Source: Verrucomicrobiota bacterium (GTDB lineage Bacteria; Verrucomicrobiota; Verrucomicrobiia; Limisphaerales; CANJSG01). Taken from it: a stretch of 64,000 bases of DNA. Shown piece by piece: positions 16,131 through 22,565 of the stretch. A program made the position numbers and the translations under genes. The DNA lies in NCBI GenBank assembly GCA_038203875.1, contig JBBRDN010000001.1, positions 2,472 to 66,471 of the forward strand. Reading direction: 5' to 3'. Each line of letters starts with the position of its first letter. The stretch's first letter is position 1. Under the pieces are notes generated by a model that saw only the letters and a program-made list of their open reading frames with translations, made no database searches and was not told the DNA's origin.

Positions 16131-18440
16131 TCAGGGGGATGCTGACGGGGGTTTTCCGAAAAGAAGCCTCAGGCTGTTGAGCACGACGATGACGGTGCTG
16201 CCCTCGTGGCCGACAACGCCGAGGGTGAGCGGGACCGGCCCCAGCGTGGCTGCCACCGCGAGCACGACGACGGTGCCGAGCGAGATGACGAGATTCTGTT
16301 TGATGATCTTCTTCGCACGAAGGCTGAGCTGGTAGGCGGCCCAGAAGTTCTCGATTCGGTCGTGCATCAGGATGACCTCGGCCTGTTCCAGGGCGGCATC
16401 GGAGCCGCGTGCGCCCATGGCCACGCCGACATGTGCGGCGGCAAGGCTGGGGGCGTCGTTCACACCGTCGCCGATCATGGCGACCTTGTGGCCGGCCTGC
16501 GCCAGTTCGCGGATAGCGTCGACCTTCTGCCCGGGCTGGAGGCCGGCGCGGACTTCATCGACGGGAACAAGCTTCTGCAGCTGGCGCCCGGCGGATTCGC
16601 GGTCGCCCGTGAGCACGAGCGAACGGATGCCGGCTTTGCGGAGCCGTTCGATGACGGGCTTCGACTCGGGCCGGACTTCGTCGCGCAGGAGGACGCGGCC
16701 GCGAAGCTCCCCGGCTTTTAGCCAGACGACGGATAAGCCGGCATCGCTGTCGTCGGCGGACGGCGGACCAGCCGGATCGTTCTCGAAAACCCAGTCGTGT
16801 TTGCCGAGCCGCACGAGCTGGCCGTCGACCTTGGCTTCGACGCCATTACCGGCGACGGAGGTGATCTCGGTCGCTTCGGGCACGGCGATCCCGAGCTTTT
16901 TTCCGTGGCGCGTGATGGCGCGGGCGAGGGGATGATTCGAGTGGGCTTCGACGGCGAGCGTGGACCGGAGCACGTCGGCTTCGCGGCCGGCCGGATAACT
17001 TCCCACTGAAGCCACCGTGAGATCGCCTGTGGTGAGCGTGCCCGTCTTGTCGAGCGCGACAATGTCCACCTCGGCCAGCTTTTCCACCGCGCCGCCACCG
17101 CGAAATAGGACGCCGTGCCGCGCGCCCCATGCGATGGCCGCGAGGATGGCGGACGGGATCGAAAGCACGAGCGCGCAAGGCGACGCGACGACCAGCAGTG
17201 TCATCGCCCGGTAGAACGCACTTTTGGTCGAAGCCGTCGAATGGATCGGCGGCAGGTCGAGCGCCAGCCACCAGACGAAGAACATGACGGCCACAAAGCC
17301 GAGCGCGCCCAAGGTGTAGCCGCTGCCGAAGCGGTCGGTGAAGCGTTGGCTCGGGGCCTTGAGCTTCTGCGAATCGCGGATGAGCCGGATGATCTTCTCC
17401 AGCGAACTTTCCGATGCGGGTCTGAGCACACGCACGTCCACGGCACCCCAGAGATTCAACGTGCCGGCCATGACAGTGTCGCCGGCCGTTTTTTCGACGG
17501 GCGTGGCTTCGCCGGTCAGGTTGGATTCGTCGGCGGCGGTGCGGCCTTTCGTGACCTCCGCATCGACGGGGAACTGGCTGTCCGGCCGGATGCGGAGCAT
17601 CAGGTCCTTCACCAGCGATTCTACGGGGAACTCCTTTTCCGAGCCGTCTTGTTGGATGACCAGCGCCGTCTTCGGCGCCGCCTTGAAGAGCGATCGGATC
17701 TCGCGCTGGGTCCGGCCCATGGCGTAGTGCTCCATCGCGCCGGAAAACGAGAACAGGAAAAGCAGGGTCGCTCCCTCCGCCCATGCGCCGATCGACGCGC
17801 AGCCGGCAGCCACGGCGAGCATGAGGAAATGGACGTCGAGCACCTTCTTCCGCAGGAGCTCCCAGACCTCCTCCGCAGGTCCCCACGCCCCGCACAGATA
17901 GGCGCCGATGAAGGCGGCCAGACTCCAGGGCCCTTCGAGGACAAGGCCCCCGAGCAGGCCCAGCGCACCGCAGCCCAGGGCGAGCGCCAGCTGGATCTTC
18001 CATTCGTCGAGCGAATGGTCGTCATCCGGAACCTCCACTTCGCGGGGCTTGAACGTCGGGATCGGGAGATTTCGCCAATGCCAGAACGAGGGGGCCGTGG
18101 GACACGTGAGGCGCGACACCGTCAGCTTGCCGGCGGTGACGGAGGCGGTGGACTGCGGCAGGGTGGTGAACAATTCGGACTTGGGACAATCACCGCACGA
18201 GCCCTCGTTCCTCGCCAGCGGACAACCCGCCTCGGCCTCCTGGGCTGCGGCCACCGCCTTAAACAACGCATCCTGGACCTGGGAATTCGGTTTCCCAGAA
18301 AACGAGGCCAGCGCACCGGACCCTTCGCCCGGGTTCAAGGTGACCGCTTCAAGCGTCGGGTCCGAGGCGATCAGATCCGCCACGGACCGCGCCAGGCAAA
18401 GATCGCCGGCGCCGTTGGTGGTTGCGGTCTGTCTGCTCAT
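16131..18440 (-). CDS. Heavy-metal translocating P1B-type ATPase (SPC / HEGST subtype)
   Basis: DKTGTLT, GDGVNDAPSL, TM motif VVASPCAL and GHEGSTVIVVLNSLR. Cys-rich N-terminus (CPLARNEGSCGDCP). Confidence 0.9.
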   Translation of the reverse strand: MSRQTATTNGAGDLCLARSVADLIASDPTLEAVTLNPGEGSGALASFSGKPNSQVQDALFKAVAAAQEAEAGCPLARNEGSCGDCPKSELFTTLPQSTASVTAGKLTVSRLTCPTAPSFWHWRNLPIPTFKPREVEVPDDDHSLDEWKIQLALALGCGALGLLGGLVLEGPWSLAAFIGAYLCGAWGPAEEVWELLRKKVLDVHFLMLAVAAGCASIGAWAEGATLLFLFSFSGAMEHYAMGRTQREIRSLFKAAPKTALVIQQDGSEKEFPVESLVKDLMLRIRPDSQFPVDAEVTKGRTAADESNLTGEATPVEKTAGDTVMAGTLNLWGAVDVRVLRPASESSLEKIIRLIRDSQKLKAPSQRFTDRFGSGYTLGALGFVAVMFFVWWLALDLPPIHSTASTKSAFYRAMTLLVVASPCALVLSIPSAILAAIAWGARHGVLFRGGGAVEKLAEVDIVALDKTGTLTTGDLTVASVGSYPAGREADVLRSTLAVEAHSNHPLARAITRHGKKLGIAVPEATEITSVAGNGVEAKVDGQLVRLGKHDWVFENDPAGPPSADDSDAGLSVVWLKAGELRGRVLLRDEVRPESKPVIERLRKAGIRSLVLTGDRESAGRQLQKLVPVDEVRAGLQPGQKVDAIRELAQAGHKVAMIGDGVNDAPSLAAAHVGVAMGARGSDAALEQAEVILMHDRIENFWAAYQLSLRAKKIIKQNLVISLGTVVVLAVAATLGPVPLTLGVVGHEGSTVIVVLNSLRLLFGKPPSASP

Positions 18441-18623
18441 CAGGGACGAACACTTCCAGCGAACACGGGTTCGTTCCAGTGGGAAAGCTGCCGCGCGATT
18501 GGCGTGAGCCGGCCGTGGATTGCCTTGGGGACGGTCTTCCGCCGTTCTCCGGAGCGCACGGCTCGCACTTTGAGACGCGACGGGTCGGGCGGGCTCAACT
18601 CAACCAATGCGAACGAAGTTCGA

Positions 18624-19334
18624 TCAACACTTCGGCGACTTGCGCTTCTTGCCGATCGCGCTGCGGGCTTCGAACTTCTCGATACGTTCGGGCGCGAACG
18701 GAATCGTGCCGCAGTTCCCGATCTGCTCGACGGCGATCTTGCCGATGCCCTTGGCGGTGGCGACCGCGACTTGGTGGAGGGGTTTGACGTAGCAGGCGAT
18801 GGCGATGACGAAACTGTTCATCGCGTATTTGAGCCGATCAGGCTGCTGGTGGATCGACTTCGCCACGCGTTGCAGGTGCGACTTGATCTCGGCCAGGTCG
18901 AGGACCGCGTCCTCCTGGATTGCGACCATGCTGCTGTAGGTCTGCCAACCGGCGGAAGCGATGGTCGCGTCCTTCGATTCGATCCACTTCAAGGCCATCT
19001 CCCGGCCATGCGGGCCCGCGGACGCCACCCACGGGACCGTGAACTCGGCGACCCAGTCGCAGGTGGCGCCCTCGATCCACTTTTGAAGGTCCTTCCTGGT
19101 CATCTTCGCGTCGTCCGCGATCAGCCCGGCGAGATACATCACGTCGGCGATTCCGGTGTCGTAGAGATCCAGGGCGAGCTGGTAGTCTTTCTTCACCCGT
19201 TTCTGGATCTTCTTCAGGTCCTCGACCTTCATGCCGAGGCACGGCTCCTTGGCACCGCCGTTGTTCACCCAGTTCTTTTTGGCATGGGCGTTGGCTGCTT
19301 TCGTGAGTTCGGCGACAATGTCCTTGGCGTTCAT
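18624..19334 (-). CDS. HEAT-repeat protein, DNA alkylation repair (AlkD-like) family suspected
   Basis: 236 aa, all-helical. The pattern LALDLYDTGIADVMYLAGLIADD...WIEGATCDW resembles the DNA alkylation repair enzyme family. Assignment is by eye only. Confidence 0.55.
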   Translation of the reverse strand: MNAKDIVAELTKAANAHAKKNWVNNGGAKEPCLGMKVEDLKKIQKRVKKDYQLALDLYDTGIADVMYLAGLIADDAKMTRKDLQKWIEGATCDWVAEFTVPWVASAGPHGREMALKWIESKDATIASAGWQTYSSMVAIQEDAVLDLAEIKSHLQRVAKSIHQQPDRLKYAMNSFVIAIACYVKPLHQVAVATAKGIGKIAVEQIGNCGTIPFAPERIEKFEARSAIGKKRKSPKC

Positions 19335-19416
19335 TTTGGCTCTCCCTGAGGTTGCAGTGGTGTGGGTTTTTATCCGTGTGCTTTATGGAGTGGGCTGCTC
19401 AGGGCGCGCAAACGTG

Positions 19417-19509
19417 GTGTAACGGCCCAAGCTCAGCGACGGCGGCCACGAGTCGCGCCGCTTGCAACCCGGACGGGACGCCGCCATTCGCTCCAGCGCA
19501 TCGCTAGGT
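19417..19509 (-). repeat. attC-like site A (degenerate cores)
   Basis: The plus strand reads GTGTAAC...GCTAGGT. The arms pair imperfectly (GCTCAGCGACGGCGGCC / GGACGCCGCCATTCGCTCCAGC). It begins 5 nt after the cupin stop codon. Same length as site B, and it shares the blocks CCAAGCTCAGCGA, TTGCAACC and CAGCGCAT. Confidence 0.5.
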
Positions 19510-19514
19510 CTTGT

Positions 19515-19874
19515 TCACTTTGATTTGGCGTAGTCGATCATGCCTTGGAAATCGATGACCACAGCCGCTTCATCTCCAACCGTCCAAGCGTCGTGCCCTG
19601 AGGGCAGAAGCGACACATCGCCGGGTTTGCAGTCGAACCCTGTGCCATCATCCATCTGGATGTGGAGTATGCCCGAGACGTGATACTGGAAATGAGGTGC
19701 CTCACAACTCTTGGTCTTGGCGAGAGGCTGGAGAGATTCAGCCCATCTCCAACCTGGTTCAAATATACACCGTCCGATCGTCGCGCCGCCGATCGTGATG
19801 ATCTCTAGTCGGCCTTTCGGGAACTCGCGAATTTCGTCAGGAGCTCCGAAATGTTTTAGTTCTGCTGTGTCCAT
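19515..19874 (-). CDS. Cupin-domain protein (cassette ORF)
   Basis: 119 aa with a beta-rich cupin-like core (HFQYHVSGILHIQMDDGT...PGDVSLLPSGHDAW). AT-richer than the genome background. Confidence 0.75.
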   Translation of the reverse strand: MDTAELKHFGAPDEIREFPKGRLEIITIGGATIGRCIFEPGWRWAESLQPLAKTKSCEAPHFQYHVSGILHIQMDDGTGFDCKPGDVSLLPSGHDAWTVGDEAAVVIDFQGMIDYAKSK

Positions 19875-19930
19875 AATGATTGAGGTGCTATTGGAGTTTT
19901 GTTTTGCGGTTGAGAGAAAAAGTGGAAGAC

Positions 19931-20023
19931 GCCTAACGATCCAAGCTCAGCGAGCCGGCGCACGGGACGCGTGGATTGCAACCGGAGCGCGATGGCCGGG
20001 TCCGCTTCAGCGCATGGTTAGGT
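19931..20023 (-). repeat. attC-like site B
   Basis: The plus strand reads GCCTAAC...GTTAGGT, which is ACCTAAC...GTTAGGC on the ORF-sense strand. Both ends fit RYYYAAC / GTTRRRY. The imperfect inverted arms carry single-base bulges. It lies 13 nt after the stop of the Zn-ribbon ORF. Confidence 0.6.
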
Positions 20024-20036
20024 GCCATCGTATGTA

Positions 20037-20267
20037 TCACGGAATGTTGATCGGAATGATGGTGGAAGGCTGATCAATCGGGGTCGCCTCCTGGGCGAGT
20101 TGGCTCTGTTTCCGGCTCGCCTCCAACTCTGCCGTCTTCTTTTCGAGTGCGTCAGTCTCCGCGCCCGTGAAACGAAGCTCCTCAGGAATGAGCGCTCCGC
20201 AAAACCCGCACTTCGGCAACCTCCGGGTGTAGAGGGCTCGCTGGCAGTTTGGGCAGTGATGTTTCAT
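20037..20267 (-). CDS. Small zinc-ribbon protein (cassette ORF)
   Basis: 76 aa with CPNC...CGFC, followed by a coiled-coil-like tail. AT-richer composition. Confidence 0.55.
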   Translation of the reverse strand: MKHHCPNCQRALYTRRLPKCGFCGALIPEELRFTGAETDALEKKTAELEASRKQSQLAQEATPIDQPSTIIPINIP

Positions 20268-20280
20268 AGCGCGAAGTGCC

Positions 20281-20333
20281 GCCTAATATTGTTACCAAGC
20301 CGCACCCGGTGCAGCCCATCACAACGGTTGGCC
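20281..20333 (-). repeat. Possible short degenerate attC-like site C
   Basis: The ORF-sense strand reads GGCCAAC-CGTTGTGA...TGGTAACAAT-ATTAGGC, with one mismatch to each core consensus. It lies 14 nt upstream of the Zn-ribbon start. Confidence 0.3.
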
Positions 20334-20533
20334 AGCGGATGGTTTTCCGTTGGTCCTGAGATAAGGAGGTTTTCCCGTGTTTGCCAGCAACTTCATGCAG
20401 TTCACCACACAGGTGGAGGGGCTCCACTGGGGAAGCCGCTTCGGCGCCGACGTTCGGTCCTTCTCTTCCTCTTCGTCCTGCTCCTAGTCATGGGACGAGG
20501 ACGAGAAGGAGAACGACGAAGAGCATTGGGACT

Positions 20534-21862
20534 TCAGGCTTTCTCCGGAGGCGTCCATGTCCCCTCCGCCCTGGCCACGTAGGTGGCGGCGGTAAGGTCG
20601 CCTACGACGTTTACCGTCGTTCGGCACATGTCGAGGATGCGGTCCACGCCGAGGATGATGGCGATGAGGCCGGGGTCCACGCCGATGGTTCCCAGCACCA
20701 CGATGATGAATGGGATCGACGCCGCCGGAATGCCCGCCGTGCCGACGCTTCCGAGGATCGCGAGGTATGCCACCATGATCTGCTGGCCGAGCGAAAGGTC
20801 GACCCCGGCCAACTGCGCGAGGAAAAGCACCGTCACGCCCTCGTAGAGCGCGGTGCCGTTCTGGTTGGCCGTCGCACCGACGGTCAGGACGAAGCTGCTG
20901 ATGTCCTTCGGCAGCTTCAGATTTTCCTCGGCCACGCGGAGCGTCGTGGGAAGCGTTGCGTTCGAGGACGAGGTGGAGAAGGCGGTCAGCATGACCGTCT
21001 TGATGCGACGGAAGAAGTCCAGCGGCGACATGCCCGAGAGCCATTTCACCGCGATGGAGTAGACTACGAAGCAGTGCAGACCGAGGCCGAGGAGCACGGT
21101 GAACATGAAGGCCGCCAGAGCGCCCAACAGCTCGAAGCCGAAGCGCGCCGTGTTGGTGAAGATCAAGCAGGCCACCGCGACGGGCGCGATCTTCATGATG
21201 ATGTCGATCAGCTTGGCCGAGATGGATTGGAGCCCCTCCAACGCATCGATGAAGCCCCGCGTCTTCTCCTGCGGCAGCAGCGTGGTCGCGCCGCCCAGCA
21301 GCAGGGTGAAGATCATCAGGTGAAGCAGATTCGGCGTCTCAGTCGCGACGGAGGCGAGGGGGTTCGTGGGGATGAACGTCTTCACGACCTGCATGGCGGG
21401 CGAATCCACGGGGCCTGTCTGCTTCGTTGCAGCCACACGCTTCTCGGCGTCGCCGGCGAACTTGGCCTGCAGTTCCTTTTTCACGTCGTCGCTGATGCGT
21501 TTGCCCGGCTGGATGACGTTCGTCGCCAGGATGCCGATGGCGACGGAGATCGCGGAGATGATCGCGCAGTAGGCCAGGCACCGGATGCCCACGCGGCCCA
21601 GCTTGCGCACGTCGCCGAAGCCCGCGACGCCGACGATGAGCGAGGAGAAGACGAGCGGAATGACCGTCAGCAGGAGCAGCCGGAGGAAAAGGGTGCCGGC
21701 GGGTTCGGTGACGTTCTCGATCGTCCACCGGACGTGGGGATGATCGCCGCCGAGGATCCTGTTGGCCAGAAGCCCTCCGACGGCTCCGACGACGAGTCCC
21801 CAGATGATCGCGGTGTGGGCGCCCTTCTTCGGGCGGTTTTGCGGAGCATGCGCCTCGGCCAT
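20534..21862 (-). CDS. Dicarboxylate/amino acid:cation symporter (DAACS family)
   Basis: FSTSSSNATLPTT and VGATANQNGTALYEG motifs. The start is chosen at MAEAHAPQNRPKK, because the longer ORF start overlaps the divergent gene. Confidence 0.9.
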   Translation of the reverse strand: MAEAHAPQNRPKKGAHTAIIWGLVVGAVGGLLANRILGGDHPHVRWTIENVTEPAGTLFLRLLLLTVIPLVFSSLIVGVAGFGDVRKLGRVGIRCLAYCAIISAISVAIGILATNVIQPGKRISDDVKKELQAKFAGDAEKRVAATKQTGPVDSPAMQVVKTFIPTNPLASVATETPNLLHLMIFTLLLGGATTLLPQEKTRGFIDALEGLQSISAKLIDIIMKIAPVAVACLIFTNTARFGFELLGALAAFMFTVLLGLGLHCFVVYSIAVKWLSGMSPLDFFRRIKTVMLTAFSTSSSNATLPTTLRVAEENLKLPKDISSFVLTVGATANQNGTALYEGVTVLFLAQLAGVDLSLGQQIMVAYLAILGSVGTAGIPAASIPFIIVVLGTIGVDPGLIAIILGVDRILDMCRTTVNVVGDLTAATYVARAEGTWTPPEKA

Positions 21863-21947
21863 GGGGCGGGACGCTAGCGGCCGATCCCGGGCCCGCCAAG
21901 ACTTGCCGCTCCTTGACCCTAAGAAACGGTTCCGCAAAGTCGCCGCG

Positions 21948-22565
21948 ATGGAAGATTCCACCCAGTCCGCCTCGCGGCGCCGTCAACGCGCCCTCGTCGC
22001 CGCGCTCGTCATCGCCGGGTTTGCCGGTCTCGCGGCGGGCTTTGCAGCGGCGTCGCTCAAGGTCGAGACCGCGCCCAAGTTTGGATCCTTCTGGCTGCTG
22101 CTCGGGGCAAGCTTGTTCACGACGGTGTTGACGATTTCTCGCCTGCCGGTGTTCCGCAGCAGCGCGACCGCACTGTCGCCGATGTTCCGGCGTTCGGTGG
22201 CCGCGATGGTGCCCGTGATGCTGGTGGGACTGTTCTTCGGGTGGTTCGTGTCGCGTGGACCGTTCAACGCGGCCGGCATGATTGTCCTGTCAGGCCTTTG
22301 GATGATGCTTCTCGGGTGCGGTTGGCTGGCGAACGCGGCTTTCCTGCCGGGAGGCGTCGCGTGGCTCGGCTGGATGATGCTGGTGCTCGGTGCGGGTGCG
22401 GCCACTTTGGGCCACGCCGGACCGGTCGATGTCTCGTGGCGTGTGGCGAACCTCGTGGTGGGTCTTGGCTTCGGCATCCCGCATCTCCTCGCGGCAATGT
22501 TTGTCCTGAAGCTCTCCGGCAAAGACAAACCGCAGCCAAAGCAGTTCGCGCCGAAAGCGGACTGA
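21948..22565 (+). CDS. Integral membrane protein, function unknown
   Basis: Starts at MEDSTQSASRRRQRALVAALVIAGF, followed by about 6 hydrophobic helices. Confidence 0.55.
   Translation: MEDSTQSASRRRQRALVAALVIAGFAGLAAGFAAASLKVETAPKFGSFWLLLGASLFTTVLTISRLPVFRSSATALSPMFRRSVAAMVPVMLVGLFFGWFVSRGPFNAAGMIVLSGLWMMLLGCGWLANAAFLPGGVAWLGWMMLVLGAGAATLGHAGPVDVSWRVANLVVGLGFGIPHLLAAMFVLKLSGKDKPQPKQFAPKAD

Follow-up and report, generated by a model that had tools for sequence, protein, structure and literature searches.

Results

Organization of the locus

Between a gene for an AlkD-like protein and a gene for a symporter, the 64-kb stretch of DNA analysed here (the window) carries two small open reading frames (ORFs), each followed by a copy of a 93-nt repeat. 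This region (19417-20401) is very probably a two-cassette integron array without an integrase of its own, i.e. a cluster of attC sites lacking integron integrase (CALIN), in a Verrucomicrobiota-like chromosome. Read along the minus strand, the order is symporter, a putative orphan attI-like site (20401 down to 20287), cassette 1 (a zinc-ribbon ORF with attC site B), cassette 2 (a cupin-like ORF with attC site A), and AlkD. A CALIN-type array between core genes had been suggested by the first-pass annotation of this DNA, and the two attC sites, the two ORFs reading towards their own attC, and the AlkD and symporter flanks agree with it. The two attC sites start 514 bp apart, within the 4 kb in which at least two attC sites make a CALIN. 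A tblastn search with three IntI proteins of the whole window, which includes 19 kb on the left of the array and 43 kb on its right, gave a best E-value of 0.46, in line with the earlier remark that no tyrosine recombinase was visible. The window thus lacks the complete-integron arrangement of an intI gene adjoining attI and cassettes, and the array is classed as a CALIN because two attC sites occur without an integrase in 64 kb.

Site A lies at 19417..19509 and site B at 19931..20023, both on the plus strand, which would be the recombinogenic "bottom" strand. In site A the R' box is GTGTAAC (19417-19423) and the R'' box GCTAGGT (19503-19509), with the predicted crossover at A19422|C19423; in site B the R' box is GCCTAAC (19931-19937) and the R'' box GTTAGGT (20017-20023), with the predicted crossover at A19936|C19937. 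The two sites are direct repeats that align without gaps at 70% identity across 90 nt and share the blocks CCAAGCTCAGCGA, TTGCAACC and CAGCGCAT, as originally reported. The pattern of positions common to A and B has two matches only in the 64 kb, with none expected from shuffles. Read in ORF sense, site B (ACCTAAC...GTTAGGC) fits the core consensus RYYYAAC/GTTRRRY exactly at both ends, and site A (ACCTAGC...GTTACAC) has one mismatch in each core; a base-by-base check confirmed the initial reading on both counts.

The cassettes were delimited from the AA|C of the R' boxes. Cassette 2 (19423..19936, minus strand) measures 514 bp from crossover to crossover and contains a weakly cupin-like ORF of 119 aa (19515..19874, minus strand), whose stop codon (19515-19517) is 5 nt from attC A. 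Cassette 1 (19937..20286, minus strand) measures 350 bp and contains an ORF of 76 aa with a zinc-ribbon-like CxxC...CxxC motif (20037..20267, minus strand), whose stop codon (20037-20039) is 13 nt from attC B. The spacing of 5-13 nt proposed at the outset was therefore right, as was the lower GC content of the ORFs: 51-58% in 19500-20300 versus 62-69% in the flanks, and 63% for the window overall. As for cassette sizes, the proposed ~515 bp agrees with our value for cassette 2, and the ~260 bp given for cassette 1 is too small.

The functional labels of the two ORFs stand only in part. The 119-aa product has no Pfam match, and it is its homologue in a related locus (L032, 69% aa identity) that gives sub-threshold matches to Cupin_3, Cupin_2 and Cupin_6. 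In an exact-protein look-up, an identical copy of this protein occurred only on one 1.8-kb contig. The whole of cassette 2, ORF and attC together, is 68% identical in nucleotide sequence to L032 55-509, where it is flanked by a second attC. The zinc-ribbon label of the 76-aa ORF is based on the CxxC...CxxC motif and sub-threshold Pfam matches, and the same look-up found no identical protein on record. The ends of cassette 1 are partly complementary (GTTAGGTGCCA at R'' of site B versus TGCCGCCTAA at 20277-20286), and those of the equivalent first cassette of a relative described below (L077) are complementary at 11 of 11 nt.

The repeat belongs to a family of integron attC sites

Copies of the repeat were gathered with the exact pattern CCAAGCTCAGCGA-N45-70-CAGCGCAT, taking one genome per species. 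At least 119 loci from many phyla match this pattern, and among the matches listed all but five obvious chance ones are full-length copies of the 93-nt element. A hidden Markov model was built from 135 copies (A, B and others, with site A aligned to 133 other copies), and nhmmer found 212 sites in the fetched loci. In the sense of the window plus strand, the family consensus reads GCCTAAC GACCCAA GCTCAGCGACCCGGC ... GATTGCAACC ... GCCGGG T TCGCTG C AGC GCATG GTTAGGC. With the family covariance model R1, whose E-values are rough, site A scores 71.0 bits (E 4e-20) on the plus strand only, and site B scores 91.6 bits (E 1e-26) on the plus strand versus 7.7 bits on the minus strand; the next-best match in the window has 13 bits. 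The closest copies are 84% identical to site A (in L018 and L037) and 92% identical to site B (in L074).

Many family members form co-oriented arrays, e.g. nine sites within 4.3 kb in L021, eight in L100, and seven each in L047 and L010, and nhmmer revealed no mixed-strand locus among those fetched. Neighbouring sites are separated by 219-2156 bp, with a median near 460 bp, and in 73 of 93 such intervals the longest ORF and the sites are on opposite strands, the ORF ending a few bases from the site downstream of it. The anatomy of the family is thus that of integron cassette arrays rather than of repetitive extragenic palindromic (REP) elements. Furthermore, complete tyrosine recombinases lie beside family sites in L044, L096 and L111, with TIGR02249 scores of 407, 411 and 480 bits (cut-off 265). 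Their genes lie on the R'' side and point away from the sites; IntI homologues or fragments were found in more than 20 loci, nearly all with this same layout. Since the window plus strand is taken as the attC bottom strand, this is the canonical order intI-attI-cassettes. An IntI (TIGR02249) with attI at the array end is therefore present in the family, though not in the window. Sites A and B belong to an attC family used by real integrons. Among the outcomes that, according to the first-pass annotation, would speak against its view were a generic REP scattered over arbitrary intergenic positions and a lack of intI in the genome and its relatives. Instead, family sites are strand-consistent at the 3' ends of small ORFs, and integrases lie beside them.

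Predicted fold and comparison with the attC of aadA1

RNAalifold recovered only 8 pairs from the 135-copy alignment, and a hand-drawn structure of 23 pairs was used instead and tested by pair counts over the same copies. It consists of a 7-bp R box, an unpaired spacer of 7 nt on one arm and 5 nt on the other with one isolated A-T pair, and a 15-bp L-box stem. Over the 135 copies 93% of cells are paired, a share that falls to 23-38% once the 3' partners are slid, and covariation (CCG/CGG versus GGC/GCC) is seen in the inner stem. For the consensus, the fold has z = -2.3, and on the 3' arm of the plus strand two single bases (T and C) bulge out, 6 bp from each other. It is this family alignment that supports the hairpin predicted for A and B.

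As a control we used the aadA1 attC of plasmid R100, whose sequence was confirmed to lie between aadA1 and qacEdelta1, downstream of intI1. Its bottom strand folds into inner stem, bulge, 6 bp, bulge, 3 bp, spacer and R box, which is the geometry of the family. From this match, the window plus strand is read as the bottom strand and the minus strand, the sense of the ORFs, as the top strand, an assignment that agrees with classical cassettes. The check for extrahelical bases recommended by the first-pass annotation hence came out in favour of attC, with two 1-nt bulges on the correct arm of the family fold. Moreover, model R1, although built from the family only, detects the aadA1 attC of R100 (30 bits, E 4e-7), and does so on the strand that does not encode aadA1.

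The window sites share with this classical 59-base element the order R''-L''-loop-L'-R', the RYYYAAC/GTTRRRY cores and an ORF ending just before R''. Also common to both are the bottom-strand hairpin with a 7-bp R box, a central unpaired spacer that is longer on the 5' arm, and two single extrahelical bases on the 3' arm, 6 bp apart, the outer one 3 bp from the spacer. The two differ in length (93 nt in the window family versus 60 nt in aadA1), in the outer extrahelical base (C versus G) and in the spacer (7/5 versus 6/5). In addition, classical attC sites of mobile integrons share little beyond the boxes, whereas the window family conserves the central part, including the loop GATTGCAACC.

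Cassette turnover at the locus

On the proximal side, the array is flanked by a core gene of the sodium:dicarboxylate symporter family (20534..21961, minus strand; PF00375, 357 bits). A close relative, the Verrucomicrobiota metagenome-assembled genome (MAG) locus L077, shares this symporter (95% identity in amino acids, 86% in nucleotides) and the junction region, with window 20297-20401 83% identical to L077 1063-1167. It carries other cassettes, a 138-aa ORF with a family attC followed by a MazF-like ORF. The homology between the two genomes starts exactly at the box GCCTAA(T/C), at the predicted crossover base, and the cassettes to the left of it are unrelated.

The distal flank (18624..19416, minus strand) comprises the AlkD-like DNA_alkylation gene (18624-19334; PF08713, 52 bits) together with its 5' leader (19335-19416); the leader runs directly up to the R' box of attC A. 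In L016, AlkD (80% aa identity) and the leader are shared up to the R' box of a family attC, and a YefM/YoeB toxin-antitoxin cassette stands in place of the cupin-like gene. In L201 and L202, the ATPase gene and AlkD are shared (84% nt identity over window 16131-19445), and only the L'-R' half of an attC is left, fused to a duplicated fragment of the ATPase gene. AlkD is also found at the distal end of another integrase-less array in L204 and L208. AlkD was itself considered as a third cassette and rejected: the best attC match downstream of it (18441-18623) has 7.6 bits (E 8) with model R1, and the gene is treated as flank.

Cassette boundaries therefore coincide with predicted crossover bases, and the cassette content of the locus differs between relatives. 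From the different cassettes in L077 and L016, the half-attC in L201/L202 and the recurrence of the cupin cassette between two attC sites in L032 it follows that the locus is variable and its cassettes modular. The comparison of related genomes proposed earlier shows the same, as L077, L016 and L201 have different or no cassettes at this place, and the array appears to have been recombinationally active. A scan of metagenomes using the symporter protein (best match 63% identical) covered 80 loci, in none of which a family attC, AlkD or ATPase lay close by; it carried no information on whether the array is present or absent.

The duplicated ATPase fragment in L201 (709-1062) and L202 (685-1038), 59% identical in amino acid sequence to residues 1-116 of the window ATPase, terminates precisely at the half-attC that lies upstream of AlkD, which points to a deletion or rearrangement having one of its endpoints within an attC.

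A putative attI-like site at the proximal end

Cassette 1 begins at a junction box GCCTAAT (20281..20287, plus strand; A|TTAGGC in ORF sense) with the predicted crossover at A20286|T20287. The resident region that follows (20287..20401) is AT-rich after the crossover and then contains the hairpin GCCGCACCCGGTGCAGC and GTTGG(C/T)C repeats; no integrase follows. This part of the DNA had been described as a third, degenerate attC (20281-20333). The sequence is present as described, but it is not an attC of the family, being absent from the R1 matches and folding no better than shuffles; more plausibly, it is where cassette 1 joins an attI-like site. The first-pass statement that no attI is visible is probably wrong, because the third site reads as such a junction.

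In nine integrase-bearing loci of the family, the first cassette meets attI as ...GCCTAAC|, and the next 12 nt are 58-100% A+T. The junction of L044 is GCCTAAC|AGTATATTAAACCGCACACCCGTGCGG, and L044 is the only one of them that also shares the short hairpin. The corresponding junctions are GCCTAAT|ATTGTTACCAAGCCGCACCCGGTGCAG in the window and GGCTAAC|ATTAAAATTAAGCTGCACCCGGCGCAG in L077. In real integrons, the conserved core of IntI starts 47-226 nt past the junction; in the window, the symporter stop codon is reached at 247 nt. A search for an intI remnant between junction and symporter (window 20287-20533; L077 1050-2037) gave matches at noise level only. The best of them, 'TQVEGLHWGSRF' in the window against 'TELAYWHWIERF' in IntI, has an E-value of about 1 in a 1.3-kb database and was rejected as evidence. 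We read 20287-20401 as an orphan attI-like site. If this is correct, the empty site would read ...GGTAACAAT(A/G)|TTACACCACG....

Two side observations concern this region. A 36-codon ORF (20378-20488, plus strand) starts inside it after a strong Shine-Dalgarno-like AAGGAGG and runs in the direction expected of intI; its ribosome-binding motif and frame are not conserved in L077, and its similarity to the IntI N-terminus is at noise level. In L208, the integrase-less array of a more distant relative, the first cassette starts as ...CCACACT|GTTAGGTGTC, and about 110 nt upstream of this start there is a tandem (CAACCAT)x4 that recalls the CCAAC repeats beside the window junction (1777-1805 and 1915-1930). 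This tandem may mark integrase-binding repeats.

Discussion

CALINs are common and already described, and integrons are present in Verrucomicrobia (Cury et al. 2016, PMC4889954); the present array is one more CALIN. As in that survey, at least two attC sites lie within 4 kb on a chromosome with no integron integrase nearby, the cassettes are few, without resistance genes and with functions not known, and there is no recognisable intI pseudogene alongside, which holds for 95% of the CALINs surveyed. Unlike those, the window array seems to keep an attI-like junction at its proximal end, conserved in a relative with other cassettes; in the survey attI could not be assessed, as attI sites are unknown for most integrons (PMC4889954). 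The host also differs, being Verrucomicrobiota-like, whereas Proteobacteria dominate the survey.

The array resembles sedentary chromosomal integrons (the Vibrio cholerae repeats of Vibrio, and Xanthomonas) in its closely similar attC family, in small ORFs mostly without known function, in the toxin-antitoxin cassettes of related arrays (YefM/YoeB in L016, MazF-like in L077), and in a fixed chromosomal location with content variable among relatives. It differs from them in having two cassettes only and no integrase, and in an attC type that occurs in more than one taxon. Both ends can be compared with relatives at ~84-86% nucleotide identity, which makes the array a clean worked example, with cassette turnover at the exact predicted crossover base despite the lack of an integrase alongside.

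In the integron mechanism, IntI binds folded single-stranded attC, and attC x attC recombination excises a cassette while attC x attI recombination inserts it. By analogy, the mechanism at the window array would be the standard one. The plus strand of each attC, when single-stranded, would fold into a hairpin with the 7-bp R box, the unpaired spacer and the L-box stem with its two extrahelical bases; IntI would bind this folded bottom strand and cut the R' box between its last A and the C (GCCTAA|C). Recombination between two attC sites would then release a cassette as a circle, and recombination of attC with attI would place a cassette next to the resident site. The integrase might act in trans, encoded at another place in the genome or on incoming DNA, or it might have acted before the local intI was lost; that one has been available in one of these ways is indicated by the cassette turnover among relatives.

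Several observations count against parts of this interpretation. As single sequences, A, B and the third candidate fold no better than shuffles (z from -0.7 to +0.9 for A and B), and the comparative analysis was undertaken for this reason. A and B are imperfect palindromes as claimed, and the single-base bulges ascribed to them hold for the family consensus, with its two 1-nt bulges; in A and B taken singly, the outer bulge region folds as a small internal loop. An Rfam scan of 18000-22000 (E up to 10) found no family on A or B and elsewhere only chance-level matches. Site A, with a mismatch in each core box, may be a poorer recombination substrate. No sigma-70-like site was found that could serve the cassettes, which agrees with the earlier remark that no Pc promoter was visible. 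The attI-like reading of 20287-20401 is drawn from resemblance: its position, its crossover base, the A+T-rich start and the repeated use by different cassettes agree with an attI, but blastn with this region finds no similarity to any integrase-linked attI. The exact-pattern sampling inflates the apparent conservation of the family, and many of the contigs come from MAGs and may be taxonomically mislabelled.

The main alternative to the attI reading is a reused secondary site of the attG type. Here, cassettes would have been inserted by IntI in trans, and 20287-20401 would be ordinary intergenic DNA with a usable G-T core. IntI is known to insert cassettes efficiently into genomes at attG sites, whose core is a minimal GWT, and isolated cassettes have been discussed in that context (Loot et al., bioRxiv 10.1101/2022.09.11.507474); insertion at secondary sites is also among the origins of CALINs considered by Cury et al. 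(PMC4889954). The window resembles the attG insertions of Loot et al. in that chromosomal cassettes lie outside a complete integron, between core genes, with the crossover at a G|T-type core. Neither the window nor L077 has an intI gene or a convincing remnant of one beside the site, and the negative blastn result also speaks for this reading. Yet the junction has the form of the nine bona fide attI junctions of the family (GCCTAAC| and then A+T-rich sequence), and three relatives keep a conserved attC half at the distal end. Unlike the attG insertions, moreover, the target in the window has been reused in two genomes, and a dedicated site fits better than a fortuitous one because the window and L077 have their different cassettes joined at one identical base. 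We prefer an orphan attI-like site and regard the attG explanation as rather unlikely.

A somewhat better chance, though still short of even, is given to the array being a detached piece of a complete integron, with intI and the remainder of the array at another position of that genome, separated by a rearrangement or the insertion of an insertion sequence (IS). In the survey of Cury et al., half of the CALINs come from genomes with an IntI gene, and the causes proposed there include rearrangements and IS elements (PMC4889954). IS91-family elements do occur inside attC sites of the family in related loci, and the cassette turnover among relatives implies an available integrase. What speaks against it is that no integrase lies in the 19 kb left of the array or the 43 kb right of it, that no IS was noticed at either array end, and that both ends are conserved with L077, L016 and L201, which also have no intI in the stretches covered. 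A detached origin would be compatible with, not opposed to, the array being an integrase-less set of cassettes next to an attI-like site.

Two further explanations would remove the repeats from integrons altogether. One is that A and B are generic palindromes, either REP or bacterial interspersed mosaic elements or remnants of miniature inverted-repeat transposable elements. They are GC-rich imperfect palindromes in intergenic DNA with a fold energy unremarkable for their composition. That there are only two copies in the 64 kb has been counted in favour of this explanation, and also cited in rejecting a REP identity. Generic palindromes would not be expected to be strictly strand-consistent in arrays at the 3' ends of small ORFs, to adjoin integron integrases, to have attC core boxes where the homology between genomes breaks, or to yield a model that recognises a class 1 attC. 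Strand consistency, placement at ORF ends and linkage to integrases refute this identity, and we give it practically no weight. The other explanation, which we consider highly improbable, takes the repeats mainly as RNA elements of minus-strand transcripts, i.e. terminators or stabilising 3' stem-loops, with incidental recombination features. Each repeat does follow a stop codon by 5-13 nt and could form a long hairpin on either strand, and the loop GATTGCAACC is conserved beyond the apparent needs of recombination. On the other hand, neither repeat matches an Rfam family or is followed by a T-run, and attC function accounts for the strand asymmetry of the bulges, the crossover-exact boundaries and the linkage to integrases, which an RNA role does not. 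A secondary terminator effect of the repeats is possible.

Family copies on contigs longer than 250 kb carry the labels Verrucomicrobiota, Planctomycetota, Cyanobacteria (a complete Nodosilinea chromosome), Nitrospiraceae and delta-proteobacteria. We suspect mis-binning or mislabelling in several short contigs that are labelled Klebsiella or Bifidobacterium and bear such arrays. The median pairwise identity of the copies, inflated by their collection through an exact pattern, is 81%, and the integrases beside family sites are only 50-57% identical to one another. Published attC models have been reported as taxon-specific, and attC sites also cluster by environment. On this basis one might speculate, as a doubtful extension of our results, that a nearly invariant 93-nt attC type, loop included, present in at least five phyla and accompanied by divergent integrases, marks a cross-phylum cassette pool of soil and freshwater, contradicting the taxon-specificity of attC, and that arrays with an orphan attI at fixed loci exchange cassettes with this pool through integrases acting in trans. 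If so, it would bear on how far cassettes travel between distant bacteria and on the use of attC sequence to infer the taxonomic origin of a cassette.

Other features of the locus and of related arrays

Just downstream of the symporter stop codon, between the symporter and the array, there is a near-perfect long inverted repeat (20448-20524; CGACGTTCGGTCCTTCTCTTCCTCTTCGTCC...GGACGAGGACGAGAAGGAGAACGACGAAG), which in Rfam has chance-level microRNA matches only. As a possible terminator, it might keep transcription of the symporter gene from reaching the cassettes. On the other side of the array, a weak Hammerhead_II match (18427-18481, minus strand; 18.6 bits versus a gathering score of 37, E 2.9) contains CUGAUGAG and spans the start codon of the P-type ATPase; it is most likely due to chance.

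The AlkD-like gene is the distal neighbour of an integrase-less array or an attC relic in at least four contexts (the window, L016, L201/L202 and L204/L208). Its neighbour on the other side varies (a P-type ATPase or an RND adaptor), and the proximal flanks vary too (the symporter or a Cys/Met PLP enzyme). The AlkD-like protein has 6368 homologues at E<=1e-40, many of them 76-88% identical and on short contigs. With no attC detected on its downstream side, the gene may be either a fixed flank or a terminal cassette whose attC has been lost.

Lastly, we noticed an element of ~2.6 kb with several copies in L112 (224-2825, 4459-7061 and 7497-8000), present also in L107, L022, L034 and L065. In L112 it sits directly after the GTT of the R'' box in three different attC sites, with the left junction ...GGTT|GAACGAAGCC... 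and the right end ...TGTGTT; identity among the copies is 99.2-99.7%. The element codes for a 291-aa Xer/IntI-like tyrosine recombinase (TIGR02249, 171 bits, below the cut-off) and an IS91-family transposase (Y2_Tnp and Zn_Tnp_IS91). It looks like an IS91-family element that prefers attC sites, and its insertion could be one route by which such arrays get split.

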